From assembly GCA_001804285.1 (NCBI GenBank), contig MHFR01000037.1, positions 19,552 to 83,551 on the forward strand: a DNA stretch of 64,000 bases. The letters are read 5' to 3'. The DNA is from Candidatus Danuiimicrobium aquiferis. GTDB taxonomy: Bacteria > Omnitrophota > Omnitrophia > Omnitrophales > Danuiimicrobiaceae. The translations under genes and the position numbers were made by a program. A model generated the notes under the pieces. The model had not been told where the DNA came from. It saw only the letters and a program-made list of their open reading frames with translations, and ran no database searches. Shown in pieces: positions 2,365-62,253 of this stretch. Within the stretch, counting starts at the first letter, position 1. Each line of letters opens with the position of its first letter.

Positions 2365-3519
<1,155 letters not shown>

Positions 3520-36399: not shown

Positions 36400-37770
36400 A
36401 TGGGAATGTGGGCAACGATTTTAGTCGTCGATGACGAAAAAAATACACGGGAAGGAATCAAACCGATTCTTGAGTCATGGGATTACGACGTTGTCCTTGC
36501 GGAAAACGGAAAGGCGGCACTTGAACTCATGAAGGAAGATTGCCCGGATATTGTTTTGGCCGATCTAAAAATGCCGGAAATGGACGGCATTGAATTATTA
36601 AATACAGTCAAACGCAAATACCCGCAGGTTATCTTCATTGTCCTCACCGCCTACGGCACGGTTCAAACCGCCGTTAGCGCCATGCAAGACGGTGCCTATT
36701 ACTATTTGACCAAACCGGTTAATTTTGAAGAGCTGGAATTAATTCTTAAAAAAGCGCTCCACCAAAGATCTATAGAACAAGAAAATGTAAATCTCCGCGC
36801 AGAGCTCATGCAAGAACGGCATGAAGCAGGCGAAATCATCGGGAATTCAGAGACGATTAAGAAAGCCATCTCAACGGCAAACCAAGTTGCACAAACTGAC
36901 TCGACGGTTTTAATCCAGGGCGAAAGCGGAACCGGAAAAGAACTGTTTGCCCATTTAATCCATTTTGGAAGCTCCCGCAGAAATCAACCGCTGATCACTG
37001 TCCACATGGCCGCGCTTACGGAGACTTTACTCGCCAGCGAACTTTTTGGACATGAAAAAGGGGCATTCACCGGGGCAACCGAACGCCGAGTCGGTCGTTT
37101 TGAACGTGCAAACGGGGGAACGCTCTTCCTCGATGAAATATCGGAAATTCCGGAAGGCATGCAGACAAAGCTCTTGCGCGTCCTTCAGGACGGCCTGTTT
37201 GAACGGGTCGGGGGAACAAAAACGATCAAAACGGATGTTCGTTTGATTTGTGCCACCAACAAAAATTTAAAGGACGAGGTCACAAAAGGGAAGTTTCGCG
37301 AAGACTTATATTATCGGATCAATGTTATTTTGCTTGAAATTCCGCCGCTGCGCAACCGCCGATCGGATATTTCGCTTCTGGTAGATCATTTTCTAAATTA
37401 TTTTACACGAATTAACCGGAAAAATATCGATGGAATAACCCCGGAAGCAAGCCAGGCGCTCAAGCAATATTCATGGCCTGGAAATATCCGTGAATTAAAA
37501 AACGTGATGGAACGCGCCGTCGTTCTTGGAAACAACGGAACGATCGGCCTTGAACAATTTCCGGACGACATCAGGCACAATCAACCCATCCGTATAGAAT
37601 CCGACGCAACAACCACGAAATCAGTCGAATCGATTCGCGGAATGGAAGATCAAATGATCAGGAAGGCTCTCAAGCAATCCGGCGGAAACAAAAGTATCAC
37701 GGCCAAACGTCTCGGAATTTCCCGCAGAACGCTTTACAGGAAAATAGAAGAATATAAAATTTCCGACTAA
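36400..37770 (+). CDS. sigma-54-dependent response regulator (NtrC family: REC + AAA+ + Fis-type HTH)
   Basis: 456 aa. REC domain (ILVVDDE...D...KMPEMDG), Walker A GESGTGKE, the GAFTGA sigma54-contact motif, and a C-terminal HTH. Confidence 0.9.
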
Positions 37771-37772
37771 CC

Positions 37773-37965
37773 CGGTTATTCTCATCGTTTTTTTCACTCG
37801 CTGAGAATAACCGCTTTGGACAATATGGACGTGCTGTCCAAAGTTTTGCGCGCATAGACAAAACAGCGCGCAAAAGATAAGCCCTTTTGCGAAAGCAATT
37901 TAAATGATTTCCGCAAAAGCTCTTTGAGCGCATTTCTCATCCCTAAAGATGAGAAATGCGGGCTA
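37773..37965 (+). repeat. family-A composite structured repeat (at least 5 hairpins, divergent full-length copy)
   Basis: H1 CGGTTATTCTCA..TGAGAATAACCG. H2 CTTTGGACA..TGTCCAAAG. H3 TTTTGCGCGC..GCGCGCAAAA followed by ATAAGCCC. H4 TTTTGCG..CGCAAAA. H5 GCATTTCTCAT..ATGAGAAATGC followed by GGGCTA. Module order and spacing match copy 47128-47316, but the stem sequences differ by compensatory changes. Confidence 0.7.
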
Positions 37966-38159
37966 ATACTGGCACGCCAGTGTATCGATATGGCCCACTG
38001 CACATATCTTATCAATAAGTTTTTTGATGGACATTGCAAGTCGTTTCTTAATAACAAGTTATACTAGCAATAAAATCAATTGTTTGGCACGGAAATTGAT
38101 GTACTGAAGATAGAAATTGAAATCATTTACAACAATTTAATAAAAACAGGAGAATTAAA

Positions 38160-42062: not shown

Positions 42063-42093
42063 TTAAACCGGCTTTACCATAGGCTCATGCTAA

Positions 42094-42165
42094 CCCGCCT
42101 TTCTCATCGATTTTGTAAATCGACGAGAAAGGCGCTTCGGGCATAATCAGTTGCGCCCAAAGTTT
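42094..42165 (+). repeat. family-A repeat, partial copy (H1+H2 modules)
   Basis: CCCGCCTTTCTCATCGATTTTGTAAATCGACGAGAAAGGCGCTTCGGGCATAATCAGTTGCGCCCAAAGTTT. Relative to 47128 it shows a compensatory GAC..GTC to GCC..GGC swap in the H1 stem. Confidence 0.65.
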
Positions 42166-44052: not shown

Positions 44053-45032
44053 TTCATTTTCACTCACCCTACGCATTCTTGCTTTTACTTCTGATCCCGC
44101 TTTTCTTTATGGCGGACTGGATAACCAAGCGTAGCACCTTGCGTTTTTCCTCGCTGTCAGAAATCAAACTCTGTCAAAATAAAAGCACCGCACTGATTAA
44201 ACCTTTTCTTTTCATCCTTCGCATGCTCGCCTATATCTTGCTTGTCACGGCACTTGCGCGCCCTCAAACAACCGAATCTGAACGGGAATACGAAACAAAA
44301 GGAATCGATATTGTGCTGGCTTTAGATATCTCCGGATCCATGTTAGCGGAAGACTTTAAGCCGAATAATCGTGTCACCGTGGCAAAAATGGAGGCTAAAA
44401 AATTCGTGCAGGGCCGTGAAAACGACCGGATCGGTCTTGTTGTTTTCTCGCGAAAAAGCTACACCCAATGCCCGCTGACACTGGATTATCACGTTCTTGC
44501 TGATTTAATTGAGAACGTCAATGTAGGCCTCATCAAGGACGGAACCGCGATCGGTCTTGGGCTCGCAAATTCCGTGAACCGGCTTCGTGAAAGTGACGTG
44601 AAAAGCAAAGTTATTATCTTATTAACGGACGGCGAAAATAACGCCGGAAATATCGACCCCATCACAGCTGCAGAACTTGCGAAAAGCTATGGAATCAAGG
44701 TGTACACGATCGGCATCGGCAAATCCGGATTGGTTCCGTTTCCGATTGAAGATCCCGTTTTCGGGAAACGTTATATCCAAACGCAGGTCAACGTTGATGA
44801 TAAAACACTCAAACGGATCGCCGACATTACCGGCGGACAATATTTTGCGGCAACCGACGCCAACGTACTTCATCAAATTTATCGGCAAATTGACAAATTG
44901 GAAAAATCAAAAGTCAAAATCAAGGAATACACAAGTTTTAGCGAACAATATAAAATTTTCCTGATTCCGGCAATTTTTATCTTGATTTGTGAAATCATAT
45001 TTAGAAATTTATTTTTTATTAAAATTCCGTAA
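44049..45032 (+). CDS. batA: VWA-domain protein BatA-like
   Basis: 327 aa. Two N-terminal TM helices, then a VWA domain with a MIDAS motif (DISGSM). Confidence 0.8.
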   Translation: MIHFHSPYAFLLLLLIPLFFMADWITKRSTLRFSSLSEIKLCQNKSTALIKPFLFILRMLAYILLVTALARPQTTESEREYETKGIDIVLALDISGSMLAEDFKPNNRVTVAKMEAKKFVQGRENDRIGLVVFSRKSYTQCPLTLDYHVLADLIENVNVGLIKDGTAIGLGLANSVNRLRESDVKSKVIILLTDGENNAGNIDPITAAELAKSYGIKVYTIGIGKSGLVPFPIEDPVFGKRYIQTQVNVDDKTLKRIADITGGQYFAATDANVLHQIYRQIDKLEKSKVKIKEYTSFSEQYKIFLIPAIFILICEIIFRNLFFIKIP

Positions 45033-45065
45033 CCCGGATTTCTCATTCGTGCTGAGAAACCCGGG
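45033..45065 (+). repeat. family-A repeat, minimal copy (single H1/H5-type hairpin)
   Basis: CCCGGATTTCTCATTCGTGCTGAGAAACCCGGG between batA and batB. Confidence 0.5.
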
Positions 45066-45080
45066 ATAAAGGCAAAAACC

Positions 45081-46097: not shown

Positions 46098-47115
46098 GCG
46101 CAAGGGGGTCCTTATTTTTTCCCACGTTTTTTACTTCGTTACATTCTGCGCATTTTTCACAACCACATCCGGCCTTAACCGGGACGGAAATAAACTTTAC
46201 CAGGAAAAACGTTATGAATCGGCATTAAAAAATTACAGGGAAGCACAAGTTCGAAATCCAGACCAGGCCGAGACGCAATACAATCTTGGAACCGCTCTTT
46301 ACCAAACGGATCAATTTCAAGAAGCCGATGAGCACTTCAAAAAATCCATCGAACTGATGAAAGATAAAGACGACAAGGCAAAGGCCTGGTATAACTACGG
46401 AAATTCTCAATATCGCCTGGGCCAATTCGAAAAAGCGATTGACGCCTATAAACACGCGCTTGATTTAAATCCGGCCGATCAGGACGCCAAATACAATATA
46501 GAGTTGCTTCAAAAGAAAAAAAACATGTTTGACATCAAACAAAAAAACCGGGATGAAAAGAAAAACGAGCAAAACCAAAACCAACAAAAACAAAACCAGC
46601 AACAAAGTAAACAACAGCAAAGCCAGAATCAACAACAGAACCAGCAGCAACAGCAGCAGAACCAACAAAACCAGCAGAACGAGCAACAACAGCAGCAAAA
46701 CAAGCAGAACCAAGAACAAAATCAAAAACAGAATCAACAGGATCAACAAAACAAAGAACAACAAAAACAAGATCAGCAGAACCAACAACAAAAAGAGCAG
46801 AATGAACAACAGCAGCCCGATCAAGGCGAAGAAGAACAAAATCAGCAGCAAAAAGAACAGGCAGAAAAAGAGCAGCAACCAAAAGAACAACGAGAACAAG
46901 AAACACCGGCCGCGCCACAGCCCGATCAATCACAAAATCAACAAGGCGGCAAACCTGAGGAGCAACAACAAAAACAGTTATATCAGGGGCAAATGTCCCG
47001 CGAAGATGCGGAAAGAATTCTAAATGCCCTCAAAGATACCGAGCAGGAGTTGCAAAGCATCGTACGCCGCCCCCAGGAAAAATTCCCGGACCACAACCCA
47101 GAAAAAGATTGGTAG
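46090..47115 (+). CDS. batC: TPR-repeat protein BatC-like with a roughly 150-aa Gln/Asn/Glu/Lys-rich low-complexity insert
   Basis: 341 aa. A signal/TM segment, three TPR units (aa 30-140), a Q/N-rich tract, and a short conserved C-terminal segment. Confidence 0.7.
   Translation: MHKRKGVLIFSHVFYFVTFCAFFTTTSGLNRDGNKLYQEKRYESALKNYREAQVRNPDQAETQYNLGTALYQTDQFQEADEHFKKSIELMKDKDDKAKAWYNYGNSQYRLGQFEKAIDAYKHALDLNPADQDAKYNIELLQKKKNMFDIKQKNRDEKKNEQNQNQQKQNQQQSKQQQSQNQQQNQQQQQQNQQNQQNEQQQQQNKQNQEQNQKQNQQDQQNKEQQKQDQQNQQQKEQNEQQQPDQGEEEQNQQQKEQAEKEQQPKEQREQETPAAPQPDQSQNQQGGKPEEQQQKQLYQGQMSREDAERILNALKDTEQELQSIVRRPQEKFPDHNPEKDW
46540..46960 (+). repeat. cryptic simple-sequence region (CAA/CAG/AAC codon repeats) inside batC
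   Basis: For about 420 nt the + strand is composed almost exclusively of A and C, with few G and almost no T. The antisense frames give poly-Leu artefact ORFs. Confidence 0.8.
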
Positions 47116-47127
47116 CAATCATTTAAA

Positions 47128-47316
47128 ATAACTTTAACCCGACTTTCTCATTGATTTTGTGAATCGACGAGAAAGTCGCTTTGGGCGCAATCAGTTAAGC
47201 CCAAAGTTTTGCGCCCTTGTTAATTTGGGGCGCAAAAGATAAGCCCTGCGTCGCAAAGATGAATACCCTCTTTGCACCGCAGCTCTTACGAGCGGAATTT
47301 CTCATTAACAATGAGA
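47128..47316 (+). repeat. family-A composite structured repeat, full-length copy (left arm of a roughly 190-bp inverted pair)
   Basis: CCCGACTTTCTCAT-CGATTTTGTGAATCG-ACGAGAAAGTCG, CTTTGGGC..GCCCAAAG, TTTTGCGCCC..GGGCGCAAAAG-ATAAGCCC, ..., GGAATTTCTCAT..ATGAGAAATCCGGGCT. The reverse complement of 50621-50819 is more than 90% identical over about 190 bp. The element ends about 30 nt before the yqeY ATG. Confidence 0.85.
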
Positions 47317-47345
47317 AATCCGGGCTAAATATTCAGGAGCATCCC

Positions 47346-47861: not shown

Positions 47862-48350
47862 CTACTTCTTTCTTCTAAATACGTCGATCTTCAACGAAGA
47901 TACCCGATCAAGAAATAAGATTCCGTTTAAGTGATCAACTTCGTGTTGAATACACACAGCTTCAAGCCCATCGGTTTCTATTCGGTTGACTTTCATGTCA
48001 AGGTCAAACCATTCTACTTTAATGGTATTCGCTCGCCTGACATTGGCCGTAAAATCCGGAATACTCATACATCCCTCCCGAAAGATTCGAAAATCCGATT
48101 CGGCGGTAATTACAGGGTTAATCATCACAAGCTGGGCTTTCCCTTGGATTTTCCGTGAGACATCGATAATGATCACGCACTTAAGAACGCCTACTTGCGG
48201 CGCAGCAATACCGATACCGCCTGGCTGCTGATGCATGATTTCGTCTAAATCTTTAATAAACGTTCTAAACTCGGCATCAATACGTTGAACCGGCTCAGAT
48301 ATTTTTTTAAGAATCGGGTCCGGATATGTGTAAATATGATATGGCTTCAT
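47862..48350 (-). CDS. def: peptide deformylase (second copy)
   Basis: 162 aa with all three PDF motifs: GIGIAAPQ, EGCMSIP, QHEVDHLNG. Confidence 0.9.
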   Translation of the reverse strand: MKPYHIYTYPDPILKKISEPVQRIDAEFRTFIKDLDEIMHQQPGGIGIAAPQVGVLKCVIIIDVSRKIQGKAQLVMINPVITAESDFRIFREGCMSIPDFTANVRRANTIKVEWFDLDMKVNRIETDGLEAVCIQHEVDHLNGILFLDRVSSLKIDVFRRKK

Positions 48351-48908
48351 TTAAAGGCGCGCTGTTTCAAGTGGTTTAAACGACACATCCACTTTCAATT
48401 TCTTCTTTATTTGATCGATTTTTTTCTCAACTGTTCGAATCCTTGCATTTTGAGGGGCATCAACCTCCAAAATAAGCGCATAAATTGAATTTTTTCCGGA
48501 TCCCGCAATGTTGGAATTCAAATCGGTAATATTCAACCCCTCATCCGCTAAAACCTTGGAAACTTGATAAACAATACCCGCGTGATCCCTTCCATAGACC
48601 GAAAGAATGTACGGAACCGAACCTTTTAGATGCTTTTCACCGCGTGTCAATCGCCGCTTTATCGGTCTTATTTGAATGCTCAAAGCCAATGTTTTTTTGA
48701 TTCGCTCAATTGAAGCAACAAACTTTCGGTAACCGGAAGCACTGCCGATTTCCGCCAAAAGAATCATGGCAAACTCCCCTTCCAAAATCGTCATATTGGC
48801 ATCTTCCAGATTGCCACCGCATTTAAAAATTGCGCCCGTAAACGCTGCGATAATTCCCGGCTGATCCTTCCCTGTAATCGTCATCAATAATTTCATGGAA
48901 CCCCTCAC
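48351..48908 (-). CDS. tandem ACT-domain protein (GcvR-like)
   Basis: 185 aa with two ACT-like repeats (MTITGKDQPGIIAAFTGAIF... and LSVYGRDHAGIVYQVSKVLA...). Abuts the def2 start and overlaps the cca stop by 4 nt. Confidence 0.65.
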   Translation of the reverse strand: MRGSMKLLMTITGKDQPGIIAAFTGAIFKCGGNLEDANMTILEGEFAMILLAEIGSASGYRKFVASIERIKKTLALSIQIRPIKRRLTRGEKHLKGSVPYILSVYGRDHAGIVYQVSKVLADEGLNITDLNSNIAGSGKNSIYALILEVDAPQNARIRTVEKKIDQIKKKLKVDVSFKPLETARL

Positions 48909-50227
48909 TGGTTAATCAGTTTTTCCTTTACGTACAAAATGGCATCCTCTTTCGATTTGAATTTCAATTCGAGCTGAAGTTCATAAATCGCATTTAAGAT
49001 TTCTTTCATTATCGGGCCTTCCGAAACCCCTAACGCCATCAGATCATGGCCGTTGATAATACATTTCGGCTTTAAATCTTCTTTCTTGAATTCTTCTCGT
49101 TTCTGAATCAAAAAATAATAATTATCAAGCGAACCGTGGCTCGCCAGGCAATCTGCCCGATGAAGTTCCAGTTCCATTTCAAAGGTTTCTTTGCCGATCA
49201 ACTGTTTCAGTTTCCCGATCCTCATTTCTTTCACATCCCCATAACGCATGTGATTCCCGATCGCCCATGTAATCCGATCAATTTCCTGATTCGAAAAGCG
49301 GAGCCGGGTTAACGCTTCCCGCGCAATGTCAGCCCCCACCGCGGCATGATTATAAAAATGGATATCGCCCGTTTCCGTTCGCCCGAAAGTACCGGGCTTA
49401 CCGACATCATGAAAAATCGCAGAAAAAGCCAACTCAACCGAAACCGGCTGCTTCAATTGATCCAACATGAGTTTGGTATGGACAAAAACATCGCCTTCCG
49501 GATGATACGCTTCCGGTTGTTTGACACCCTTTAGCGCTTCGATTTCTGGTAAAACCTCTGCAAGCAAACCGCTTTCTGACAGCAAAACAAGCCCCTTCCC
49601 CGCTCCCGGCCGAGTAAACATTTTAACGAGTTCATCGCGGATCCGTTCCTGGCTGACCCTGTGAATGCTTGTCCGGTTACGAATCATCGCAGCCCATGTT
49701 GCTGCCTCAATTTCAAAATTCAAATTTGCCGCAAACCGGATCGCGCGTAAAATCCGGAGATGATCTTCCTCAAAGCGCTCCTGCGGATTTCCGATCGTAC
49801 GGATAACTTTCTTTTCAATATCCATTTGCCCGGAAACGAAATCGATCATTCGGCGATTCATCGGATCGTAAAACAATCCATTGATCGCGAAATCCCGCCT
49901 TTTCGCATCTTCTTCGGGCGAAGAAAAAGACACTGACTCGGGATGGCGGCCATCCACATACTTCGCATCAGAGCGGAACGTGGTCACTTCAAATTGATAC
50001 CCCTCCAGGACAACAATTTCGACACCGAATTTTTTCCCGACAGAAATACATTTCGGGAACATCGCTTCAATGTCATCCGGAAGCGCACTGGTCGCAATAT
50101 CATAATCTTTGGGCGTATTTCCCATAATCAAATCCCGGACATATCCGCCGGCAAAAAACGCCACAAATCCGGCGGCTTTCAGCTTTTCAATAATTTGAAT
50201 TGCGATTTTTTCTGCCTGTTCAGCCAT
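48905..50227 (-). CDS. cca: CCA tRNA nucleotidyltransferase (pol-beta-like NTase head + HD domain)
   Basis: 440 aa. GGYVRDLIMG...DYDIAT NTase motif, ...RRDFAING..., and a C-terminal HD domain (HDVGK...HH...D). Confidence 0.85.
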   Translation of the reverse strand: MAEQAEKIAIQIIEKLKAAGFVAFFAGGYVRDLIMGNTPKDYDIATSALPDDIEAMFPKCISVGKKFGVEIVVLEGYQFEVTTFRSDAKYVDGRHPESVSFSSPEEDAKRRDFAINGLFYDPMNRRMIDFVSGQMDIEKKVIRTIGNPQERFEEDHLRILRAIRFAANLNFEIEAATWAAMIRNRTSIHRVSQERIRDELVKMFTRPGAGKGLVLLSESGLLAEVLPEIEALKGVKQPEAYHPEGDVFVHTKLMLDQLKQPVSVELAFSAIFHDVGKPGTFGRTETGDIHFYNHAAVGADIAREALTRLRFSNQEIDRITWAIGNHMRYGDVKEMRIGKLKQLIGKETFEMELELHRADCLASHGSLDNYYFLIQKREEFKKEDLKPKCIINGHDLMALGVSEGPIMKEILNAIYELQLELKFKSKEDAILYVKEKLINQ

Positions 50228-50240
50228 AAAAGATTCCCAA

Positions 50241-50291
50241 TACCCCTCACCCTATCCCTCTCCCCGTGGGAGAGGGATAGGGTGAGGGGTA
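50241..50291 (-). repeat. family-C GC-rich perfect hairpin (24-25-bp stem, 3-nt loop)
   Basis: TACCCCTCACCCTATCCCTCTCCC-cgt-GGGAGAGGGATAGGGTGAGGGGTA, located between the acyP stop (50331) and the cca start (50227). A related copy lies at 57841-57896. Confidence 0.8.
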
Positions 50292-50330
50292 TCTGTTAAT
50301 CACTTCAAAACGCTAAATAATTACTTCCAA

Positions 50331-50603
50331 TTAACGGACTGAAAACGTTACAAAATTCTGCTGTGGCTCTTCAACCGTAATCGCCACATCATCCACTTGC
50401 GCACCCGGCGGTCCGGAATGACACCATTTGACTAATCGCGCAATATAGGCTTCTTCGCCTTGCGCCACAATCTCAACCTTTCCATCGGGTAAATTTCGCG
50501 CAAAACCAACTAATTTCAGGCTTCTTGCGTTCTCTGCGGCCGAAGCGCGATAAAACACCCCTTGAACTCTTCCGGAAATCAACAAATTGACCTGTTTAAT
50601 CAT
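50331..50603 (-). CDS. acyP: acylphosphatase
   Basis: 90 aa with VQGVFYR...GFARN acylphosphatase signatures. Confidence 0.85.
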   Translation of the reverse strand: MIKQVNLLISGRVQGVFYRASAAENARSLKLVGFARNLPDGKVEIVAQGEEAYIARLVKWCHSGPPGAQVDDVAITVEEPQQNFVTFSVR

Positions 50604-50620
50604 GATCCCCTATCGCCCTC

Positions 50621-50819
50621 AGCCCGGATTTCTCATTCTGAATAAGAAATTCCGCTCGTAAGAGCTGCGGCGCAAAGATGGTCCGTATGTTTGCGACGCA
50701 GGGCTTATCTTTTGCGCCCTGATTTAACAAGGGCGCAAAACTTTGGGCGTAACTTATTGCGCCCAAAGCGACTTTCTCGTCGATTCACAAAATCGATGAG
50801 AAAGTCGGGTTAGGACTCA
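50621..50819 (-). repeat. family-A composite structured repeat, full-length copy (right arm, inverted)
   Basis: The reverse complement aligns base-for-base with 47128-47316 (same five hairpin modules, ATAAGCCC and GGGCT landmarks). Its 3' end, in the transcribed sense, lies about 18 nt upstream of the acyP ATG. Its 5' end overlaps the last 11 codons of the MFS gene. Confidence 0.85.
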
Positions 50820-51996
50820 TATTCTTGCTTAGTTTACGGATAAACCAAAAGCCGGTCAAACTCAAAAATGCGGTGGCAAGAATAAGCCAATTCAAGCCAA
50901 TGCCTTCATAGAGCATTCCGCCTGCCGAACGGAAAATAGCCTGGCTTAGATTATAGATACTTGAAATCATGGCAAATAATGACCCTTCGACACCGGTTCC
51001 GTGTGATAACTTTGCCGCCAAGGACATGAATGGCAGCAAACTGATATAACCCAAAATACCGCCAATCACAGATAAAACACCTGCCGACACTCTGCCCCGG
51101 ATAGCAAAAACGAGAAGCACGTCAACAAAGGTAATCATAACTGCCCAATATAGCGCCGTTTGGTCTTTCATGGTTTTAAAAAACCGCGCATAAAACAAAC
51201 AGCCGATAATCGCCCCAAGCCACGTTAAACTTTGAAGGAGCCCGAGAAAAAACTCATTAAACCTGAGCTGGTCCTTCATGTAAAAAAAGAATGGCGTTCC
51301 AATCGCTACCGGCAGCGCTGAAACGGCAAAAAGCAGCATGAACCATAGAATCTTGCGTTGAAATAAATATTTGAAACTTGTAAAAACCGCCTCTGCAATT
51401 TTTTCTTTTCGCGATCGTGCATCGGAAGGCTGTTCGTGAATAAAAAATGAAACCACAAATGAAATCATGGGCAAAAACCCGGTTAATAGGAAAACGGTCC
51501 GGTATCCAACCTTCACCGTCAAATACCCACCCGTCACACCCGCGAGTAAAGCGCCTATGCTTCGGGCACCCCACGATATGCTTTGATACGTCTGGGCGGT
51601 ACTTTTATCCGAATATTCCACAACTAAACCATCCGTGATCACATCTGTGGCGGCGAGCCCTAAATTGGCAAGTGTCAACGCAAAAATCACCGTCACGTCT
51701 TGAGCTTGTCCAACCGCCAGCAAAAACCATCCGGCAGCCGAAAAAAGTGAACAAATAATTAAATACGGTTTTCTCCTCAGTCCGAAAATCGGAATCCCGT
51801 CACTGATGATTCCATAGAGGATTTTAACAAACCACGGCCATGTCGTCAGCGATGTGATCCATGCAATTTTTGAAATACTGTAACCGTTTTCACGCATGAA
51901 TAGCGGCAGTGCAATAGCGGAAAGACCGAGGGCTCCCTGGATAAAATACACGACAAAGGCAAGGCTTCCAACATTCTTATTGATACGTTCTTTCAT
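50785..51996 (-). CDS. MFS-type transporter (12 TM; folate/biopterin-transporter-like)
   Basis: 403 aa of polytopic membrane protein with an MFS-like 6+6 arrangement. Confidence 0.6.
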   Translation of the reverse strand: MKERINKNVGSLAFVVYFIQGALGLSAIALPLFMRENGYSISKIAWITSLTTWPWFVKILYGIISDGIPIFGLRRKPYLIICSLFSAAGWFLLAVGQAQDVTVIFALTLANLGLAATDVITDGLVVEYSDKSTAQTYQSISWGARSIGALLAGVTGGYLTVKVGYRTVFLLTGFLPMISFVVSFFIHEQPSDARSRKEKIAEAVFTSFKYLFQRKILWFMLLFAVSALPVAIGTPFFFYMKDQLRFNEFFLGLLQSLTWLGAIIGCLFYARFFKTMKDQTALYWAVMITFVDVLLVFAIRGRVSAGVLSVIGGILGYISLLPFMSLAAKLSHGTGVEGSLFAMISSIYNLSQAIFRSAGGMLYEGIGLNWLILATAFLSLTGFWFIRKLSKNMSPNPTFSSIL

Positions 51997-52019
51997 GTCG
52001 TGTCAAGTTAGGTAAGTTT

Positions 52020-52337
52020 TTAAGACGAGAAAAAGTCCCTGGCTGTTTGCTGACCTGTGAGTTTTTTAAAATCATCATAATCAATCCATGTGAGATCCTG
52101 CCTCGCGGCATGAAGATGCTTCACAATCCGGAACCTTTCTCCGGGATTACTTGCGAATCGCCTGCTCGTTACATACTTAAACGGCGTTTTGCACTTGGGA
52201 CATTCTTTTGCGGTTTTATAACTGATGCCAAGTTCTCTGCAATTTCCGCAATCGCCCATGAGATCGCCGGCAATGAGCAAATGTTTTTGAATGTCGTTAA
52301 GGTCCTTCTCCGCCCAAATTCGAATCCAGCATTGCAT
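52020..52337 (-). CDS. hypothetical zinc-ribbon protein
   Basis: 105 aa with CGNC...CPKC. No family recognised. Confidence 0.35.
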   Translation of the reverse strand: MQCWIRIWAEKDLNDIQKHLLIAGDLMGDCGNCRELGISYKTAKECPKCKTPFKYVTSRRFASNPGERFRIVKHLHAARQDLTWIDYDDFKKLTGQQTARDFFSS

Positions 52338-52365
52338 AACGACTCCTTAGATTAAGCACCTCTTT

Positions 52366-52971
52366 TTACTTAACAATAAACACTTCGTCCCCTGCTCTCA
52401 CCCGCTCTTTCACCTCAATGCCAACCTCTTCACCTTTTCGTCCGGTATCCACGGGAATCCGGCTGATTTGAAGAGACTGAATCTTTTGACGGAAATCCGT
52501 CGTCTCACCCTTAAACAATACAAAATCCCCGACAGAAAGCGGTTTCGCCAACTTCACCGCAGCAGCATTTACATTCGGGAAAAAATGAGTCACATCCGCA
52601 ACCTTTACCAATCGTTTTTGAATTCCAGCCGGCTTGACGGCTTTTGCCTTTTTGACACTGTGAGATTTAACTTTCGGTCGACTGTGCCGTTTCTTTTTGT
52701 TACGGACAATTTTCTTTTTCGATTTCCGTTTTGGTCTTGCTTCCGTTTTTCTTCTTTTCGGCTTACCTTTTTTTCGTTGTTTTCGCTTCGCAGGAAACCG
52801 TCCGCTTGTTTTAGACTGAATATCTTCGCCGGCCAGTAGCCGTTTAGAAAATTTGATAACTTTTTTTAGCAGTCCAAACACTGAAAGCCTATTTTTTTGT
52901 CTTTTTTTGTTTAAAAAAAGAATCCACCCATTTGACTGACCATGAAAATATTGAGTCACCGCCTTTTTCAA
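52366..52971 (-). CDS. hypothetical highly basic protein with an EF-Tu domain-2-like C-terminal beta-barrel; start uncertain
   Basis: A Lys/Arg-rich central tract is followed by ...PLSVGDFVLFKGETTDFRQKIQSLQI...GRKGEEVGIEVKERVRAGDEVFIVK, which resembles the EF-Tu/IF2 domain II pattern. The annotated N-terminus overlaps ORF 52889-53266 by 83 nt. Confidence 0.35.
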   Translation of the reverse strand: MKKAVTQYFHGQSNGWILFLNKKRQKNRLSVFGLLKKVIKFSKRLLAGEDIQSKTSGRFPAKRKQRKKGKPKRRKTEARPKRKSKKKIVRNKKKRHSRPKVKSHSVKKAKAVKPAGIQKRLVKVADVTHFFPNVNAAAVKLAKPLSVGDFVLFKGETTDFRQKIQSLQISRIPVDTGRKGEEVGIEVKERVRAGDEVFIVK

Positions 52972-53266
52972 CTGTATGAACTGTTTTATCGGTTCCCTTC
53001 CCGATCAAGTTTGATGACTTCTCGGTCACATCAGCCGTATTGTCCTCAACCACCTTCAACGTCTTTTTAATCGCTGCGCGCTTTGCGGGCGACTCGGCAA
53101 CCGCCGCTGCTGGCGTTCCTGAAAATGTCGCTTCTTTTCGGTCTTCAACTTGGCGGATCGCAATATCTGGGTTTAAGTCTTTATTTTCATTGCCGGCAAG
53201 TAAAAAAAACGGCGAGACTATCAGGATTAACAAAAATAGGCCTGCAAAATAGATGATTCGCTTCAT
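52889..53266 (-). CDS. hypothetical secreted protein (signal peptide)
   Basis: 125 aa. N-terminal MKRIIYFAGLFLLILIVSPFFLLAG signal, then a hydrophilic Ala/Lys/Glu-rich body. Confidence 0.4.
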   Translation of the reverse strand: MKRIIYFAGLFLLILIVSPFFLLAGNENKDLNPDIAIRQVEDRKEATFSGTPAAAVAESPAKRAAIKKTLKVVEDNTADVTEKSSNLIGKGTDKTVHTVEKGGDSIFSWSVKWVDSFFKQKKTKK

Positions 53267-53333
53267 AGTAACCTCGCTATTTATTCATCAGTAACAATGA
53301 CCAACACTGCGACACGGTAACACATATATTTTT

Positions 53334-53394
53334 GTCATTCCCGCGGAAGCGGGAATCTATAAACTATGGATGCCCGCTTTCGCGGGCATGACAG
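53334..53394 (-). repeat. family-B palindromic repeat copy (two hairpins)
   Basis: GTCATTCCCGCGGAAGCGGGAATC ... GATGCCCGCTTTCGCGGGCATGACA, immediately downstream of rng. Confidence 0.7.
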
Positions 53395-53413
53395 AAGTTC
53401 ATGTGCCCGAACG

Positions 53414-54913
53414 CTACTTCACAAATGTAATATTCGTATCTTCCCTGTGCATACTCGGATCGGCAAGAATATAAATCTTACTCTTCGAATTTTTTTCCAA
53501 CTCCTTGATCGACTGCTGTTCCTGATTTAAGAGCCGCTCCGCAACATCCGGATGAACATACGCATTAATCACTTTGTTGTGAGAATGATTAAGCGCTTTC
53601 TTGATTTCTTTAATCGTATGAATCGTCATCGTCGTCACTGACTTGACGCTTCCTTTTCCCGTGCAATAGGGACAAGAATCATACACGGCGCTCTCAAGTG
53701 ACGGGCGTATTCTCTGGCGCGTCATTTCCACAAGGCCAAGCTCGGACATCTGCAGAATATTCGTCTTTGCACGATCGCGCCTGACCGCATCCTTGAAAAG
53801 CCGGTAAAGATGCCTCCGGTGATCTTCTTCCTCCATATCAATAAAGTCAATAACGACAATTCCGCCCATGTCGCGCAACCGGACCTGTCTCGCAATTTCC
53901 GAAGCCGCTTCAAGATTGGTACGATAAACCGTTTCTTCCAAATCTTTGCTGCCGGTAAATTTTCCGGTGTTCACGTCGATAGCAACCAGGCCTTCTGTCT
54001 GTTCGATAATAATATGGCCCCCGGAGTGTAAATAAACTTTCTTGTGAAAAGTCCTCTCCACCTCTTTTTCAATGTGATATTTTTCATAAAGGGGAGCATC
54101 GCCCTTATACCAGTCAAATTTAACCTTCACTCCGGGAAGATAAATATTGAGAAAGCGCTTGACCTGATTATATAAATTTTTGTTATCGACAACGATTCGC
54201 TCGACTTCCTCATTATAGAAATCGCGGATAATACGCTCCACCAAATCGAGCTCGGAATGAATCAGGCACGGCGCCGTTTTATTTTGACATTCCGTTTTAA
54301 TTTTACTCCATACCCGGGTTAAATATTTAATGTCGCGCGCAAACTCCTTTTTCGTTTTCCCTTCCCCCGCCGTCCGGACAATAAAACCGATATCGCTCGG
54401 GCAACTCAATTCCTGAAAAATAGCCCGGATGCGGTCTCTCTCGGAGCGGGAATCAACACGCCTGGAAATGCCTAATTTATGATCCCCCGGCATTAAAACA
54501 AGATAACGCGCCGGAATGGCAAAGTGAGTCGTTAAACGCGGGCCTTTCGAGCGGATAGGTTCTTTGACAATCTGGACAATGACTTCCTGTCCGGGTTTTA
54601 GAAGATCTTCAATTCGCTGAAACTGCTTTCTCTCGCTTTTCTCTTCGTATTCAATATCTTCAAACGCAGAATCTAAACCAAGCGGGGACTCAAGCGCATC
54701 CGTAACATATAGGAAGCCATCCTTTTGCGTTCCCAAGTCGACAAACGCCGCCTGCATCCCGGGAATCACTGACTTCACGATTCCTTTGTAAATATTCCCA
54801 AACATTTTGTACGTGTCGGCCCGCTCGATAAAAAACTCTTCGAGCTTCCCATTTTCGAGAATCGCCACGCGTCTCTCGTTCACTTCTTCTGAAATTAAAA
54901 TATCTTTTTTCAT
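53414..54913 (-). CDS. rng: ribonuclease G/E family endoribonuclease
   Basis: A start at 54913 (MKKDILISEEVNERRVAILENGKLEEFFIER) gives about 499 aa, with an S1 domain, DNase-I-like catalytic region and a CPxCxGxG zinc link (CPYCTGKG). The ORF track's longer 55021 start is less likely. Confidence 0.85.
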   Translation of the reverse strand: MKKDILISEEVNERRVAILENGKLEEFFIERADTYKMFGNIYKGIVKSVIPGMQAAFVDLGTQKDGFLYVTDALESPLGLDSAFEDIEYEEKSERKQFQRIEDLLKPGQEVIVQIVKEPIRSKGPRLTTHFAIPARYLVLMPGDHKLGISRRVDSRSERDRIRAIFQELSCPSDIGFIVRTAGEGKTKKEFARDIKYLTRVWSKIKTECQNKTAPCLIHSELDLVERIIRDFYNEEVERIVVDNKNLYNQVKRFLNIYLPGVKVKFDWYKGDAPLYEKYHIEKEVERTFHKKVYLHSGGHIIIEQTEGLVAIDVNTGKFTGSKDLEETVYRTNLEAASEIARQVRLRDMGGIVVIDFIDMEEEDHRRHLYRLFKDAVRRDRAKTNILQMSELGLVEMTRQRIRPSLESAVYDSCPYCTGKGSVKSVTTMTIHTIKEIKKALNHSHNKVINAYVHPDVAERLLNQEQQSIKELEKNSKSKIYILADPSMHREDTNITFVK

Positions 54914-55372
54914 GATTATCAACCACTCTTTCTGTAATTCCGTGTAATTCCCCGCATCCGCCGGAGCAGTCGCAATCCTGAGATTCATCCAGCCATGGAA
55001 TTGAATCTTTACCGGAATCAATATTCAAAATGTCAAAATTGAACAGGCCTATTATCAAGGCCTGCAAAGATCGCCACGAAGTTTCACGCTTCTGTGACGT
55101 TGTGTGGCAAGAGAATAAACAATGCGGCATCGAATTCGTCAATAGAACACGAAAGATGTCTCTGGCTATGGAATGGACACTTTGAATAATTGATTGGACC
55201 TGCTCGCAAAGGCGAGTAAATACAATGCTAATAAATAGTTTAAACTTTAAAATTTTTTCACCTAAAATGCTTGCGAATCCGCTTAAATCAACGTCAATTA
55301 TGTGCGAATTCAAAAAACTAATCTTGTCAAAAACCTTCAAAATCATAAATAAAAAACCATTTTGCGTTTCTC

Positions 55373-55481
55373 TGTCATTCCCGCAATCTTCCCTCGGTAA
55401 ATCGAGGGCCGGCCCTGTATTTCCAGGGTAGGCGGGAATCTCTGAATCGTAGATGCCCGACATAAGCATTCGGGCATGACA
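55373..55481 (-). repeat. family-B repeat, expanded copy with a nested GGGCCGGCCC core
   Basis: CTGTCATTCCCGC-[CCCTCG..CGAGGGCCGGCCCTG..CAGGG]-GCGGGAAT ... GATGCCCGA..TCGGGCATGACA. It lies in the roughly 670-nt region upstream of rng. Confidence 0.7.
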
Positions 55482-55586
55482 CAATACAATCTGTCGTAAC
55501 TTATACCCATTACAAAAACCAGTCAAATTAAGTATTTTAAGATAATATCGAACTCTGACAGCTGTATTATACCATACTTTCACAAC

Positions 55587-57140
55587 TTATACGACAGCCG
55601 TTTTCCCCGGAACTTTAGGTGCTTGCAACACAACCGGTTCGCCGGCTGTATCAACAACATTCACGGTAACAAAAAACAAGGTTTCCTGTTTAGCGTTTGT
55701 GTCTCCAGACGCCTTGCGTTTTGAACGAAATGCCTTACCCAATATAGGAATATCGCCTAACACCGGAACTTTTGTGTAACTCTCAGAACCCTTATCTGTC
55801 ATCAGCCCGCCGACTGCAATCGTTTCGCCGCTTTTTATCATCACTTGCGTGTGAGCCGACTCCACGTTGAACGTTGGAAATTGATCAAACGAAGTTGACG
55901 CACTAGCCCCTGAGCTAAAAGAGACAAGACTTCCTTGTGAACTAACCTCCGGCTTTAAATCTACCAAAATCTCATCCGCATTATTAATGTGAGGAGTCAC
56001 CTCCAGCACAACGCCTGTCTCGCGATAGGAAAAACCAGAGACTTCAAAACTTCCGGATGTCTCATTACGTTCAAGTGTCGGAATCGGTACATCGACACCA
56101 ACTTTTACTTTTGCTGTTTGATGATTTAAAACAGTAATCCGCGGATTTGAAATAATTTTAGTATTAGCGCGGCTTCTTAAAAAATTGAGCGTCGCCTGAA
56201 AAGCCGTGAAATCCAAAGCACCAAATGTAAACGATGTCGTTCCTGCAGAGGCTGCCGGAATCGTAGGGAAACCGCGCAAATTATCCGAATTGGGAGTTAC
56301 AGTAGCAGCAGAAACCTCTGTACCGACGTTCGAAGCCAAAGTGGGGAAAACAGGTTTAAAGAATTCTTCGAGAAAAAAATTCTTATCATTCGCAAACGGA
56401 AATGTCGATGGCCTTTTCGACCCCGAAATAGTTGCTCCAGGTGACCACTGAATTCCCAGGTTTTCTCCTTCCTGCATTGCTGTTTTTACAATCTTCGCAT
56501 CAATATACGCTTGCGGCGTATTCTTATCTAATTTTCTAACCACCTCTGTGATTTTGGTGATATTGGTCGGAATATCCGTCACAATCAGCATATTGGTACG
56601 TGCAACCGATTTTACCCGGCCACGCTCCGACAGCACATCCTTAATCGCTTCTTCGGCTTCCTGGCACGTCGTGTAATTCAAAATAAAAGTTTCCGTGATC
56701 AATTCCTCGGTCGTCAGACTCTCTTTGGTCGTCACGCGAATAATATTGCCGTCACGCTCGTAAACATATCCATAGGTTCTTAATACAATATCAAGCGCCT
56801 TATCCCACGGAACATCTTCAAGCCGGATCGTAACGGTTCCCTGGACTTCCGGCCCGGAAACGACATTGATATTACTCTTGAGTGCAATAATACGAAGCAC
56901 GTTATTGATATCCGCATCTTTAAAATCCAAACTGACATTTCCGGAAGCTTCAGAAATTTCAACATGGTCTTCTGAAACAGCCATCTCATCAGCAACAACA
57001 TTGTACTCGGTCACTTGAGCGGGGTCTTTCGCTGTTTCTTGCTTCACTTCTGGACTTGTCTCCTGTTTTGCTTCTTGAGCAAAAGCATCGTGCGCCATAA
57101 ATATAAATATGATGCTAAGAAAAACAATTATCTTTTTCAT
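55587..57140 (-). CDS. pilQ: type IV pilus secretin PilQ
   Basis: A start at 57140 (MKKIIVFLSIIFIFMAHDAFA signal) gives about 517 aa, with an AMIN/N0-like region and a C-terminal secretin domain (...VPVLGDIPILGKAFRS...). The ORF track's 57287 start reads through a family-B repeat. Confidence 0.85.
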   Translation of the reverse strand: MKKIIVFLSIIFIFMAHDAFAQEAKQETSPEVKQETAKDPAQVTEYNVVADEMAVSEDHVEISEASGNVSLDFKDADINNVLRIIALKSNINVVSGPEVQGTVTIRLEDVPWDKALDIVLRTYGYVYERDGNIIRVTTKESLTTEELITETFILNYTTCQEAEEAIKDVLSERGRVKSVARTNMLIVTDIPTNITKITEVVRKLDKNTPQAYIDAKIVKTAMQEGENLGIQWSPGATISGSKRPSTFPFANDKNFFLEEFFKPVFPTLASNVGTEVSAATVTPNSDNLRGFPTIPAASAGTTSFTFGALDFTAFQATLNFLRSRANTKIISNPRITVLNHQTAKVKVGVDVPIPTLERNETSGSFEVSGFSYRETGVVLEVTPHINNADEILVDLKPEVSSQGSLVSFSSGASASTSFDQFPTFNVESAHTQVMIKSGETIAVGGLMTDKGSESYTKVPVLGDIPILGKAFRSKRKASGDTNAKQETLFFVTVNVVDTAGEPVVLQAPKVPGKTAVV

Positions 57141-57207
57141 TATTTTATTTCCTGTTTTACTCAAACTGACCGTTTTTTTAATAAGTGGGACATCACATCT
57201 TAATATT

Positions 57208-57255
57208 CTGTCATTCCCGCCTGAAGCTTGCGGGAATGACAGAAATTCGCAGAAC
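57208..57255 (-). repeat. family-B repeat, minimal copy
   Basis: CTGTCATTCCCGC-ctgaagctt-GCGGGAATGACAG-AAATTCGCAGAAC. The 3' tail CAGAAA.YCGCAGAAC is shared with the copy ending at 60521. Confidence 0.7.
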
Positions 57256-57264
57256 TCAATTCCT

Positions 57265-57777
57265 TTATTTAGCTTCTTTTCCGTCATTCAATACTTTTTG
57301 TCTGGTCATCTCCGCCAAACCTTCCAATCCGGAAACTTTTTTCTCCTTCTTATTTTCGGCTTTTGGCACGGGTTCTTTATTGCTTATTTTTTTCGCTTTG
57401 GTCGATTGTTTTGCAAGCATCTCTTTCAGCATTTCTTCTTCTTGATTAATCACCATCTCAAACATTTCGCCGTTGTCTTTTATAAATACGATGACATCTT
57501 TCTTAATGTCTTTAATCCGAACTCCGTCGAATTCTTCACCGATTCTGCGAGGTTCCCCGTTGATCAATGCATAGGATCCATTTTTTTTCGGATCTATAAT
57601 CACGCCCTCAATGTGAATATTGGTCATCCCCAATTTGGCTCCTTCTTTGACTGCCATTCCCGCTGGCAGAAATGGATCGCGTTTCCCTTCGCTTTGGTAA
57701 ATAAAATCCCCGGCAGATATAACCACGGGGGAAAAGCATCCAAAAATTACGAAGGAAAATAAAAATGGATAGATCAT
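57265..57777 (-). CDS. pilP: type IV pilus lipoprotein PilP-like (start ambiguous)
   Basis: A start at 57777 (MIYPFLFSFVIFGC, lipobox-like signal) gives about 170 aa. An upstream ATG at 57939 overlaps the pilO stop (ATGA), but would place a family-C hairpin inside the coding region and leave the signal peptide internal. Confidence 0.5.
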   Translation of the reverse strand: MIYPFLFSFVIFGCFSPVVISAGDFIYQSEGKRDPFLPAGMAVKEGAKLGMTNIHIEGVIIDPKKNGSYALINGEPRRIGEEFDGVRIKDIKKDVIVFIKDNGEMFEMVINQEEEMLKEMLAKQSTKAKKISNKEPVPKAENKKEKKVSGLEGLAEMTRQKVLNDGKEAK

Positions 57778-57840
57778 TTTAGACCAATACTGAGACGTGT
57801 TTTTAGTGCTTCGCTCAATAAATTCGAATCGATTTTCATC

Positions 57841-57896
57841 CCCCTCACCCTCCACGTTGAATTTACCCTCTCCCTCAGGGAGAGGGTGGGGTGAGG
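57841..57896 (-). repeat. family-C GC-rich hairpin, imperfect copy
   Basis: CCCTCACCC-tccacgttgaattt-ACCCTCTCCC-tca-GGGAGAGGGT-g-GGGTGAGGG. It shares both stem modules with 50241-50291. Confidence 0.7.
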
Positions 57897-57935
57897 GTAA
57901 TTCCGGTACTGATTTACTGAATAGCTTACTCCGTT

Positions 57936-58544
57936 TCATTTTCCCACCCGCTCAATAAGTGCCGCTAATACAAAATTAGACTGAAGGATCCCCGAACGAG
58001 CATCTTTGCCTTTCAAATAAAAATTCGGAATGATAAAACTTTTGCCGTAACGCTCCAGCCCGTTAAAAAACGATCCGATTTGGTGATAACTCCCTTCGAT
58101 GCTCAAATCGTAAGAAACGGCTGTATAGAGTTTGTCAAACGGCGCCTCCAACTTCAACTCGAGATTACTCGGCCTTGACGCCGTGATCCGGATTCCGGCT
58201 TTTTGAGCCGTCGATGAAATAATTTCAATCAACTGATCGATTTCACCCATTTTAAAGAATTTCTGCCGGACTATTTCTGCGCGTTTGCTTAAAAATTCTT
58301 TTTCTTTTTTCATTGCCGGAATTTTTGAAATTCGAACCGTTGCATCACGAACATGAGACTGCAACTCTCTCACCTCGCCGATCATTTTTTGATTCGTGAT
58401 AAAAACGGGAACAACCCCCACAAAAACAATGATCAATAAGATGGCCCCAAAAATGGAATTTTGGATCAGCATTCGCCGATCCAACTTAGCCAACCACTCG
58501 CGAACTTTTTTGATGGATATTTGTTCTTTTGCTACTTTTGCCAC
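57936..58544 (-). CDS. pilO: type IV pilus assembly protein PilO
   Basis: 202 aa with an N-terminal TM anchor, coiled coil and periplasmic domain. Overlaps the pilN end. Confidence 0.6.
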   Translation of the reverse strand: MAKVAKEQISIKKVREWLAKLDRRMLIQNSIFGAILLIIVFVGVVPVFITNQKMIGEVRELQSHVRDATVRISKIPAMKKEKEFLSKRAEIVRQKFFKMGEIDQLIEIISSTAQKAGIRITASRPSNLELKLEAPFDKLYTAVSYDLSIEGSYHQIGSFFNGLERYGKSFIIPNFYLKGKDARSGILQSNFVLAALIERVGK

Positions 58545-60279: not shown

Positions 60280-60357
60280 TTAGCTTACTCTTCAATTATT
60301 TACTTAGGTTCTGAAAATTTTAAGGCGTCATAATCACAACTCTTTGATAGGAATGAG

Positions 60358-60521: not shown

Positions 60522-60568
60522 TTAAATTATTATACTATCTTTATGAACGTCCAAAACAGGTTTTATGT

Positions 60569-62191: not shown

Positions 62192-62253
62192 AGAATCATC
62201 AACGATTATCTACCTCAAAACCTTTTTTTATGAAAATATCATATTAGCGGAAT

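Follow-up and report, generated by a model that had tools for sequence, protein, structure and literature searches.

Within a 64,000-nucleotide stretch of contig MHFR01000037.1 from Candidatus Danuiimicrobium aquiferis (hereafter the window), a structured intergenic repeat of ~194 nucleotides (nt), which we refer to as Family A, is present in five copies. Family A is a discrete unit with the fixed ends TAA-CCCG...CGGGC-TAA and has been inserted into many unrelated spacers between core genes; its hosts are D. aquiferis, an Omnitrophota member from the Rifle aquifer, and at least one other uncultured organism. Our working hypothesis, which we consider probable, is that Family A is non-autonomous, gene-less mobile DNA that is moved in trans by an HUH/Y1 enzyme in the manner of palindrome-associated transposable elements (PATEs) or of repetitive extragenic palindromes (REPs) and bacterial interspersed mosaic elements (BIMEs). 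Small mobile repeats of this kind are known, but the family itself has not been described before.

The original prediction had proposed five copies of a multi-hairpin element in the window, and all five were found again with corrected bounds, which we set from the ends common to the whole family. The copy at 47135-47328 (+ strand; 194 nt; subfamily A1), used here as the reference, lies between the last gene of the bat operon (stop codon at 47113-47115) and yqeY (ATG at 47346), in a spacer that measures ~39 nt once the element is subtracted. The second full A1 copy, also of 194 nt (50619-50812; - strand), lies between a gene for a major facilitator superfamily (MFS) transporter and acyP and has the 3′ end variant GGGCTGA. 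In the full copy of subfamily A2 (37768-37966; + strand; 199 nt), the 5′ TAA (37768-37770) doubles as the stop codon of a sigma-54 response-regulator gene, and dnaK starts 193 nt downstream. The remaining two copies are shorter: a 3′-truncated A1 copy between moxR and a DUF58 gene (42091-42165; + strand; 75 nt) consists only of TAA and the first two hairpins, M1 and M2, with a compensated GCC/GGC variant in M1, while a terminal-only copy (45030-45070; + strand; 41 nt), in which the left and right ends are fused into one hairpin (TAACCCGGATTTCTCA...TGAGAAACCCGGGATAA), contributes the stop codon of batA through its 5′ TAA. The copies at 47135 and 50619 are 92% identical, and the copy at 37768 is ~68% identical to both. 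When the window was searched for the element by permissive BLAST, these five copies and no others were recovered, apart from a weak sixth match (53189-53229) that lies within coding sequence and was dismissed as chance. At ≤1 mismatch, the window contains 11 occurrences of the end motif CCCGnnTTTCTCA, whereas 1.65 would be expected, and none of 100 shuffles reached 11.

The predicted fold of the reference copy has a free energy of -88.1 kcal/mol as RNA (z = -10.6) and -54.1 kcal/mol as DNA (z = -10.3) and comprises hairpins M1, M2, and M3 in series, a GATA linker, and a junction closed by AGCCC/GGGCT that holds hairpin M4, a mini-hairpin, and hairpin M5. Read along the + strand, the target-side trinucleotide 5′ TAA (47135-47137), preceded by a T in this copy, is followed by the left subterminal hairpin M1 (GACTTTCTCAT...GAGAAAGTC; 47140-47178), which has one A.C mismatch in A1, then by M2 (CTTTGGGC...GCCCAAAG; 47179-47206), the variable tip of which is extended in other subfamilies, and M3 (TTTTGCGCCC...GGGCGCAAAA; 47207-47237), in which a C-G pair is swapped to G-C in 14 copies. 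The linker GATA plus AGCCC (47238-47246) provides the 5′ side of the junction-closing helix (helix 5), the partner of which is GGGCT at 47322-47326. Inside the junction lie M4 (TGCGTCGCAAAG...CTTTGCACCGCA; 47247-47281), for which A2 and A3 carry TTTTGCGGAAAT...ATTTCCGCAAAA instead, the mini-hairpin GCTCTTACGAGC (helix 7; 47282-47293), which has GCCC/GGGC or CTCC/GGAG variants in other copies, and the right subterminal hairpin M5 (GGAATTTCTCAT...ATGAGAAATCC; 47294-47321), the stem sequence of which is related to that of M1. The element closes with GGGCTAA (47322-47328) and, thus, with an element-encoded CTAA terminus.

M1 begins 5 nt from the 5′ end and M5 stops 7 nt from the 3′ end, and the two have TTTCTCAT/ATGAGAAA in common. 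Over 14 nt, each end is the inverted repeat of the other (CCCGnnTTTCTCAT / ATGAGAAAnnCGGG), and this inverted repeat is a by-product of two similar palindromic hairpins. The ends are also written here as TAACCCGnnTTTCTCAT / ATGAGAAAnnCGGGCTAA, and a junction of a right end with a left end would read ...CCGGGCTAA followed directly by CCCGAC.... Elements range from 41 to 290 nt and have no open reading frame (ORF) of their own; the single ORF that runs across a copy is a spurious 87-amino-acid ORF with a TTG start on the opposite strand. For an intrinsic terminator or promoter within the element we found weak matches only, at background frequency. We note that the M5 loop (47303-47309 in the reference) usually contains TTAA or TTAG, which is the complement of the terminal CTAA (47325-47328) and of the YTAA target, and that this is also the landing site of other copies.

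To follow the family beyond the window, metagenomes were scanned with the 20-mer GNGCGCAAAAGATAAGCCCT from the M3-linker region, and 66 loci were returned, mostly from Rifle genome bins and metagenomes, with the remainder belonging to an unrelated metagenome (Ga0247727) and an ENA set. In these loci we count 49 distinct full-length copies, all of which start with TAACCCG and end with CGGGCTAA or a one-base variant of it, and the flanks of these copies are unrelated. The invariance of the linker and AGCCC across the fetched loci is partly owed to the search pattern used. A scan of GTDB genomes with the 17-mer GCGCAAAAGATAAGCCC gave 64 loci, which is about the chance number, and none had a second element motif; plasmid BLAST, phage BLAST, and an IMG/VR scan gave no match to the element. 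Rfam 15 has no match at the gathering score anywhere in the window, and at E ≤ 10 only microRNA- or snoRNA-like hairpin noise appears, in agreement with the original prediction, which matched the element to no riboswitch or REP family. A literature search found no paper linking Omnitrophota with MITEs (miniature transposable elements with inverted repeats), REPs, or insertion sequence (IS) elements. Subfamily A1 has 33 copies with a mean pairwise identity of 89%, and A2 and A3 are 56-71% identical to A1 (~64% between subfamilies).

The hairpins are conserved across this divergence. Folded singly, 45 of the 49 copies adopt the shape [][][][[][][]] with six helices. In the 49-copy alignment, 93.2% of the stem cells are paired versus 37-48% with the partners slid by 1-3 columns, and both sides have changed at 18 pairs (142 cells), including five pairs in M1 (helix 1) and six in M4 (helix 6); none of 500 shuffles reached the observed values. 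Whole stems have been exchanged between subfamilies, as in M4 (TGCGTCGCAAAG/CTTTGCACCGCA versus TTTTGCGGAAAT/ATTTCCGCAAAA). The compensatory stem changes originally noticed between copies in the window, therefore, hold for the family at large. This compensation mostly separates sublineages and subfamilies. Within A1, deviations from the consensus pair comprise 33 G.U, 33 A.C, 43 other mismatches, and 34 compensated changes; because G.U and A.C are equally frequent, the decay of single copies does not favor the transcribed strand. In 30 of the 33 A1 copies, antisense RNA folds more stably than sense RNA (mean difference 7 kcal/mol); A2/A3 show no difference. The covariation is, therefore, strong but not strand-specific. 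Divergence from the A1 consensus is 4.0% in stems and 13.3% in loops (p = 9e-8), and the termini are invariant. This pattern fits the diversification of mobilizable master copies under a hairpin constraint and is compatible with a role at the level of the host. Covariation had been read as excluding a mobile element; this argument does not carry, because compensation lies mostly between subfamilies and a transposase that recognizes hairpins would constrain stems and termini too. More generally, covariation of stems alone does not separate a functional RNA from hairpin-dependent mobile DNA.

As a further line of evidence for insertion, we took advantage of the homologues of BatA, which led to three syntenic contigs of relatives (BatA identities of 80%, 70%, and 66%) in which the gene order RR-dnaK-...-moxR-DUF58-...-batA-batB-TPR-yqeY and def-...-cca-acyP-MFS is kept (RR, response regulator; TPR, tetratricopeptide repeat protein). 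None of the orthologous spacers covered in these contigs (L137, L139, and L140), which jointly cover all five sites, contains the element, and nhmmer detected no family member in the loci of the three relatives. Specifically, the batA-batB spacer is 12-15 nt long in L140 and L137, and in the window it consists of TAA, 38 nt of element, and AGGCAAAAACC. The TPR-yqeY spacer is 42 nt in L137 versus 39 nt in the window minus the element, and the moxR-DUF58 (30 nt) and MFS-acyP (82 nt) spacers of L137 are element-free. In L139, the response-regulator stop codon is followed by CTGGCAC with no element between them; in the window, CTGGCAC follows the 3′ TAA of the element. We note that CTGGCAC (37971-37977 in the window; ~3832-3838 in L139), which stands after the response-regulator stop codon and upstream of dnaK in both, resembles the -24 element of a sigma-54 promoter, and that a second TGGCACGgaaaTTGA is found at ~38125.

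These empty sites bear directly on the leader or riboswitch reading that was among those first offered, in which the element would be a cis-regulatory RNA (a 5′ leader, riboswitch, or attenuator) for the downstream gene. The strong structure and its covariation would suit such an RNA, as would the sense orientation of 5/5 copies in the window, the sense bias overall (29:7), and the position of many 3′ ends 10-40 nt before a start codon. Proximity to the yqeY and acyP starts, which had been given as 18-30 nt, is real, although the actual distances are 17 nt and ~15 nt, respectively; this proximity arises because insertion was into spacers that were only 11-44 nt long. Against a cis-regulatory RNA, the orthologous spacers of the relatives lack the element, the downstream genes are functionally unrelated (dnaK, DUF58, batB, yqeY, acyP, PHO4, and others), eight insertions lie in convergent spacers and seven are antisense, copies are nested in copies, the sense strand has no folding advantage, and Rfam has no match. 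We, therefore, reject this explanation and give it hardly any credence.

Nested and rearranged copies provide snapshots of insertion. In L075, L096, and L098, a reversed A1 copy carries an A2 copy within the loop of its M5; the empty loop reads CATCGT-TAA-TGAGAAA, and the filled loop reads CATCGT-TAA-[core]-TAA-T(G/A)AGAAA. In L133 and L120, copies are inserted within a different palindromic repeat. Elsewhere, a full copy adjoins the 3′ remnant of another copy and a single TAA is common to both. Derivatives of the sort seen with small transposons are also present. Terminal-only hairpins of 40-52 nt are found at 45030 in the window and at L113 1630, L122 11072, and L106 10259. The ~290-nt variant is the element plus another small repeat that it has acquired; we considered whether its 95 extra nucleotides might be the relic of a coding region, but no such origin could be traced and half of them are a small repeat that is also found alone. 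This small hairpin repeat (GGTTTTGACTCCC...GGAAAGTCAAACC) lies inside long A1 variants (e.g., L087 853-946) and stands alone at L084 5951-6000 and L114 5741-5782. In L131 (1228-1365), an A1 copy is split within M2 by a ~140-nt GC-rich insert of CCCCCGGGCAAGCCCGGGG palindromes. Contigs of several assemblies end inside copies; structured repeats of ~200 nt such as these break assemblies and could be mistaken for riboswitches or leaders during annotation. Near-identical A1 copies at L080 2461-2653 and L116 808-1000 have the same right flank and different left flanks, so that either copies have recombined or the assembly is chimeric at the repeat. We also looked for an orthologous insertion in D. 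aquiferis and the Ga0247727 organism; loci of both have homologous genes, with the elements 1-12 kb away in other positions and orientations. This overlap is at chance level, and the candidates were rejected.

The target and the ends indicate how the element may move. All 49 copies have the 5′ TAA and 48/49 have the 3′ CTAA. Immediately before the 5′ TAA, 39 copies have C, eight have T, and two have G (n = 49; background C 22%; p = 3e-17), and no other flank position is conserved, including the flank after the 3′ TAA. Among the inspected copies with T at -1, only the one in L075 also has T before the 3′ TAA; because the -1 base does not co-vary with the 3′ C, we interpret the fourth base as a target preference and not as part of a duplication. 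None of the 49 copies is flanked by TTA...TTA, and because TAA is non-palindromic, insertion is orientation-specific at an asymmetric target. This is reminiscent of the peel-and-paste transposition of IS200/IS605 elements, which insert 3′ of a fixed tetra- or pentanucleotide in one orientation and without duplication (PMC5027513) and which have both target-adjacent and element-encoded motifs (PMC10055086). The oriented YTAA target, the hairpins near both ends, and the element-encoded CTAA together point to single-strand mobilization of the HUH/Y1, IS200/IS605 type. In the mechanism that we envision, the moving form would be folded single-stranded DNA, and an HUH/Y1 transposase of the IS200/IS605-RAYT (REP-associated tyrosine transposase) type, acting in trans, would recognize M1 and M5 as related subterminal hairpins, cleave behind the CTAA that the element carries at its 3′ end, and reinsert the element 3′ of YTAA in a single, invariable orientation. 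Compensatory stem changes would then reflect selection on mobilizable master copies to keep their hairpins, and individual copies would subsequently decay.

We also considered that the same ends could belong to a classical MITE moved by a DDE transposase, with the 14-nt terminal inverted repeats as binding sites, TAA as a 3-bp target-site duplication, and the hairpins as incidental or internal palindromes. In favor of this view, each end is the inverted repeat of the other, and TAA stands twice at filled sites and once at the empty site, which is not distinguishable from an oriented 3-nt duplication; Family A also agrees with the definition of a MITE in its size, absence of coding capacity, placement between genes, and stable folding (PMC3184786). 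However, the two-fold symmetric complex of such a transposase should insert both ways, whereas the non-palindromic TAA is in a fixed orientation (49/49 at the 5′ end and 47/49 at the 3′ end) and none of the copies is flanked by TTA...TTA. Moreover, the conserved Y at -1 does not form a duplicated pair with the C that precedes the 3′ TAA, internal hairpins kept by compensation would not be needed, and the ~0.55 Mb of loci searched contained neither an IS with these inverted repeats nor paired ends 0.7-3 kb apart. We, therefore, regard a DDE-type MITE as the main, although unlikely, alternative.

Several observations weigh against movement by an HUH/Y1 enzyme, a mechanism that we infer only from the anatomy of the element. 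First, the 14-nt terminal inverted repeat together with the direct repeat of TAA is the formal signature of a DDE-type MITE. Second, a transposase is present neither in the window ±10 kb nor among ten ORFs adjoining copies, and tblastn with IS608 and IS200 TnpA probes gave no Y1 match below E = 0.7 in the ~0.55 Mb of loci. No RAYT gene flanked by copies was seen in the fetched loci, and no tnpB or iscB in the window ±10 kb or in the ORFs adjoining copies. The ORFs next to or between copies encode PhoU-like, PHO4, methyltransferase, LacI-type, enolase-superfamily, and unknown proteins, none of which is transposase-like. A 353-amino-acid protein (L098 1256-2834, the same locus as L075 8171-9262) was examined as a candidate and rejected, as it is membrane-anchored, resembles an SGNH-type hydrolase by eye, and has no Pfam match; its gene is flanked by two inverted composite A1::A2 copies and has paralogues in L124. 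Third, the copy set is biased by the 20-mer query toward intact full-length copies. Fourth, compensatory change between subfamilies has preserved M2, M3, M4, and the mini-hairpin as well, and something besides transposition may constrain these internal hairpins; to our knowledge, an IS200/IS605 transposase does not need them. Finally, the bias toward sense insertion is explained neither by the available targets nor by GC skew, as detailed below. The preserved internal architecture and this bias are what lend the family its residual interest.

The internal architecture, with three tandem hairpins followed by a three-hairpin junction that ends exactly at the right boundary, may be dispensable for transposition and raises the idea of a trans-acting RNA scaffold carried by a PATE, either an omega-RNA-like guide or a new structured RNA borne by a transposon, which host operons would transcribe owing to sense insertion. 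We consider this improbable; if true, it would represent an unrecognized class of guide RNA or structured RNA in Omnitrophota. A more specific version is that Family A is a PATE with an omega-RNA-like guide scaffold for a TnpB/IscB-type nuclease encoded elsewhere, with the guide derived from the 3′ flank and YTAA as the target-adjacent motif. Omega-RNAs that work together with TnpB in trans are often encoded in PATEs (PMC10055086), the conserved multi-helix part takes up the 3′ 150 nt and stops where the element does, and sense insertion into host transcripts would allow the element to be transcribed without a recognizable promoter. Yet Rfam yields no match at permissive thresholds, neither tnpB nor iscB was seen in the sequence examined, the sense strand folds no better than the antisense strand, and a target-adjacent motif of 3-4 nt would be unusually short, making this specific version very improbable.

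With respect to transcription, the orientation of the element is biased but not fixed. All five copies in the window lie between co-directional genes in the sense orientation, in line with the strictly transcription-sense arrangement first described; across the sampled genomes, this strictness is lost. With duplicate loci removed, co-directional spacers contain 29 sense and 7 antisense copies (p = 3e-4), and a further 12 copies are in divergent and 8 in convergent spacers. In ~11 sense cases the 5′ TAA of the element is the stop codon of the upstream gene, and without them the ratio is 18:7 (p = 0.04). Elements, thus, supply upstream stop codons at ~11 sampled insertions and in 2/5 window copies, which is of relevance for annotation. 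The sense preference is genuine without being absolute. It is not accounted for by target availability (46 CTAA versus 62 TTAG in element-free co-directional spacers), and sense copies are equally frequent at a sense-strand GC skew of ~0 and of ~+0.15, the skew being a noisy proxy for the replication strand. A bias of IS200/IS605 transposition for the lagging strand could yield a sense bias in a genome with co-oriented genes. This cause finds no support here, as the sense bias does not track GC skew and the skew of the window is not mirrored across its strand switch. On the antisense strand, a hairpin followed by CTTATCTTTT forms a weak terminator-like site. Speculatively, the sense bias probably results from selection against antisense insertions inside operons; alternatively, and equally as speculation, the exposed non-template strand may be targeted.

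The sense bias is also relevant to the possibility that the mobile element has additionally been co-opted as RNA, i.e., as an mRNA stabilizer, an RNase processing site, or an insulator between cistrons, which would be compatible with our working hypothesis of mobile DNA. Copies inside operons would be co-transcribed, the 29:7 ratio is explained neither by target availability nor by GC-skew class, A1 stems are three times better conserved than loops, and internal hairpins are kept across subfamilies. RNA-level roles have been proposed for REP/BIME, ERIC, BOX, and Correia elements. Many REPs are thought to act as RNA elements (PMC3733652; PMC3184786). On the other hand, neither the equal numbers of G.U and A.C deviations nor the more stable antisense fold suggests selection on a sense transcript, and related genomes run the same operons without the element. 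Based on these considerations, we think that co-option is distinctly unlikely.

Returning to Family A as mobile DNA, we compared it with described systems; PATEs are the closest known kind, followed by REP/BIME/REPIN-RAYT repeats and modular MITE-like repeats. PATEs are gene-less derivatives of IS200/IS605 in Haloquadratum and Geobacillus that form families of >90% identity with strain- or lineage-specific insertions (PMC3119063; PMC10055086), give rise to ~50-nt terminal-only forms via deletion between near-terminal palindromes, and are frequently nested with other small repeats (PMC3119063). Family A is likewise too short for a transposase, has related palindromes near both termini and a short conserved terminal oligonucleotide, appears to make no ordinary symmetric target duplication, and displays lineage-specific insertion, terminal-only core deletions, and nesting. 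It differs in that PATEs are defined as lacking terminal inverted repeats while the ends of the element are a 14-nt inverted repeat, so that it formally falls outside the definition. In addition, no parent IS200/IS605 element or tnpA was found for Family A, its target is only YTAA, it has four further internal helices kept by compensation, and Omnitrophota would be a new host phylum for such elements. Membership in the PATE class would hinge on the cognate transposase. Were this enzyme found, the very short target and compact ends might be of interest for single-strand transposition. Irrespective of class, Family A is a clear example of small mobile DNA that has hairpin ends and an oriented YTAA target; in its phylum, all known members of which are uncultured, the literature and sequence collections that we searched yielded no account of such repeats.

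Of the three readings first offered, a REP/BIME-like DNA element comes closest and is essentially right, except that the strict definition of a REP does not apply. Family A shares with REP, BIME, and REPIN repeats a high copy number of extragenic palindromes, a mosaic and modular organization, a location mainly in co-directional and convergent spacers, probable co-transcription with flanking genes, and a proposed HUH/Y1-dependent movement on DNA hairpins (PMC3733652). By contrast, REPs are units of 20-40 bp with an unpaired GTAG or CGTC tag (PMC3733652). The Family A unit has a fixed length of 194 nt and six helices, its ends are TAACCCG / CGGGCTAA, and neither GTAG nor CGTC is conserved in it. 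The bacterial MITEs and modular repeats known as Correia/NEMIS, ERIC/IRU, RUP, and BOX resemble Family A in having a short flanking direct repeat with TA, in lying in transcribed spacers, and in varying in size through the gain or loss of internal modules. Again similar to Family A, they are gene-less, 100-200 nt long, and have inverted ends and stable RNA or DNA folds (PMC3184786); Family A differs from them by its fixed orientation relative to a non-palindromic target (49/49), by internal helices compensated across ~64%-identical subfamilies, and by the lack of similarity in plasmid, phage, and Rfam collections. We also considered an integron attC site and rejected it, as the flank after the 3′ TAA is not conserved and the neighbors are dispersed housekeeping genes rather than cassettes. 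attC sites follow the R''/R' core-site consensus RYYYAAC...GTTRRRY and lie at the 3′ ends of cassettes in an array.

Other small palindromic repeats occur alongside Family A. L139, which is free of Family A, has other palindromic repeats in the same bat-operon spacers (7921-8123, 10981-11086, 13012-13136, and 16368-16523), examples of which are GGGGACAC...GTGTCCCC and GGGCACATTTTAACGTGCCC, and bat-operon spacers seem to be recurrent landing sites for small repeats. In the window, a second, unrelated palindromic family that is REP-like (TGTCATTCCCGC...GCGGGAATGACA) is found in several intergenic spacers (3675-3686, 53319-53393, 55360-55440, 57209-57241, 57652-57663, and 60497-60508). A third palindrome family (CCCTCACCC..CCCTCTCCC-N3-GGGAGAGGG..GGGTGAGGG) is present at 50240-50292 and 57866-57886; the arms of the copy located between cca and acyP match perfectly over 25 nt, and palindromes of this family host Family A copies at L133 ~6360-6640 and L120 ~3205-3500.

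Proteins encoded in the window are identical to proteins of Omnitrophica metagenome-assembled genomes from the Rifle aquifer that bear the name Candidatus Danuiimicrobium aquiferis. The gene content of the window is housekeeping only and includes glycolysis, fatty-acid synthesis, SMC, RecA, AlaRS, and the his and trp operons, together with a sigma-54 two-component pair, dnaK, the bat operon, yqeY, def, cca, acyP, RNase G, and pilus genes. All genes at 227-47792 are on the + strand and all genes at 47862-63483 on the - strand; GC skew is ~0 in the + block and -0.15 in the - block, and the two blocks are not mirror images. The last bat-operon gene encodes a 341-amino-acid protein, the orthologues of which are annotated as TPR proteins in the relatives, and contains at 46552-46913 a CAA/CAG/AAC-rich coding repeat with a 9-nt periodicity that specifies a Q/N-rich low-complexity segment.

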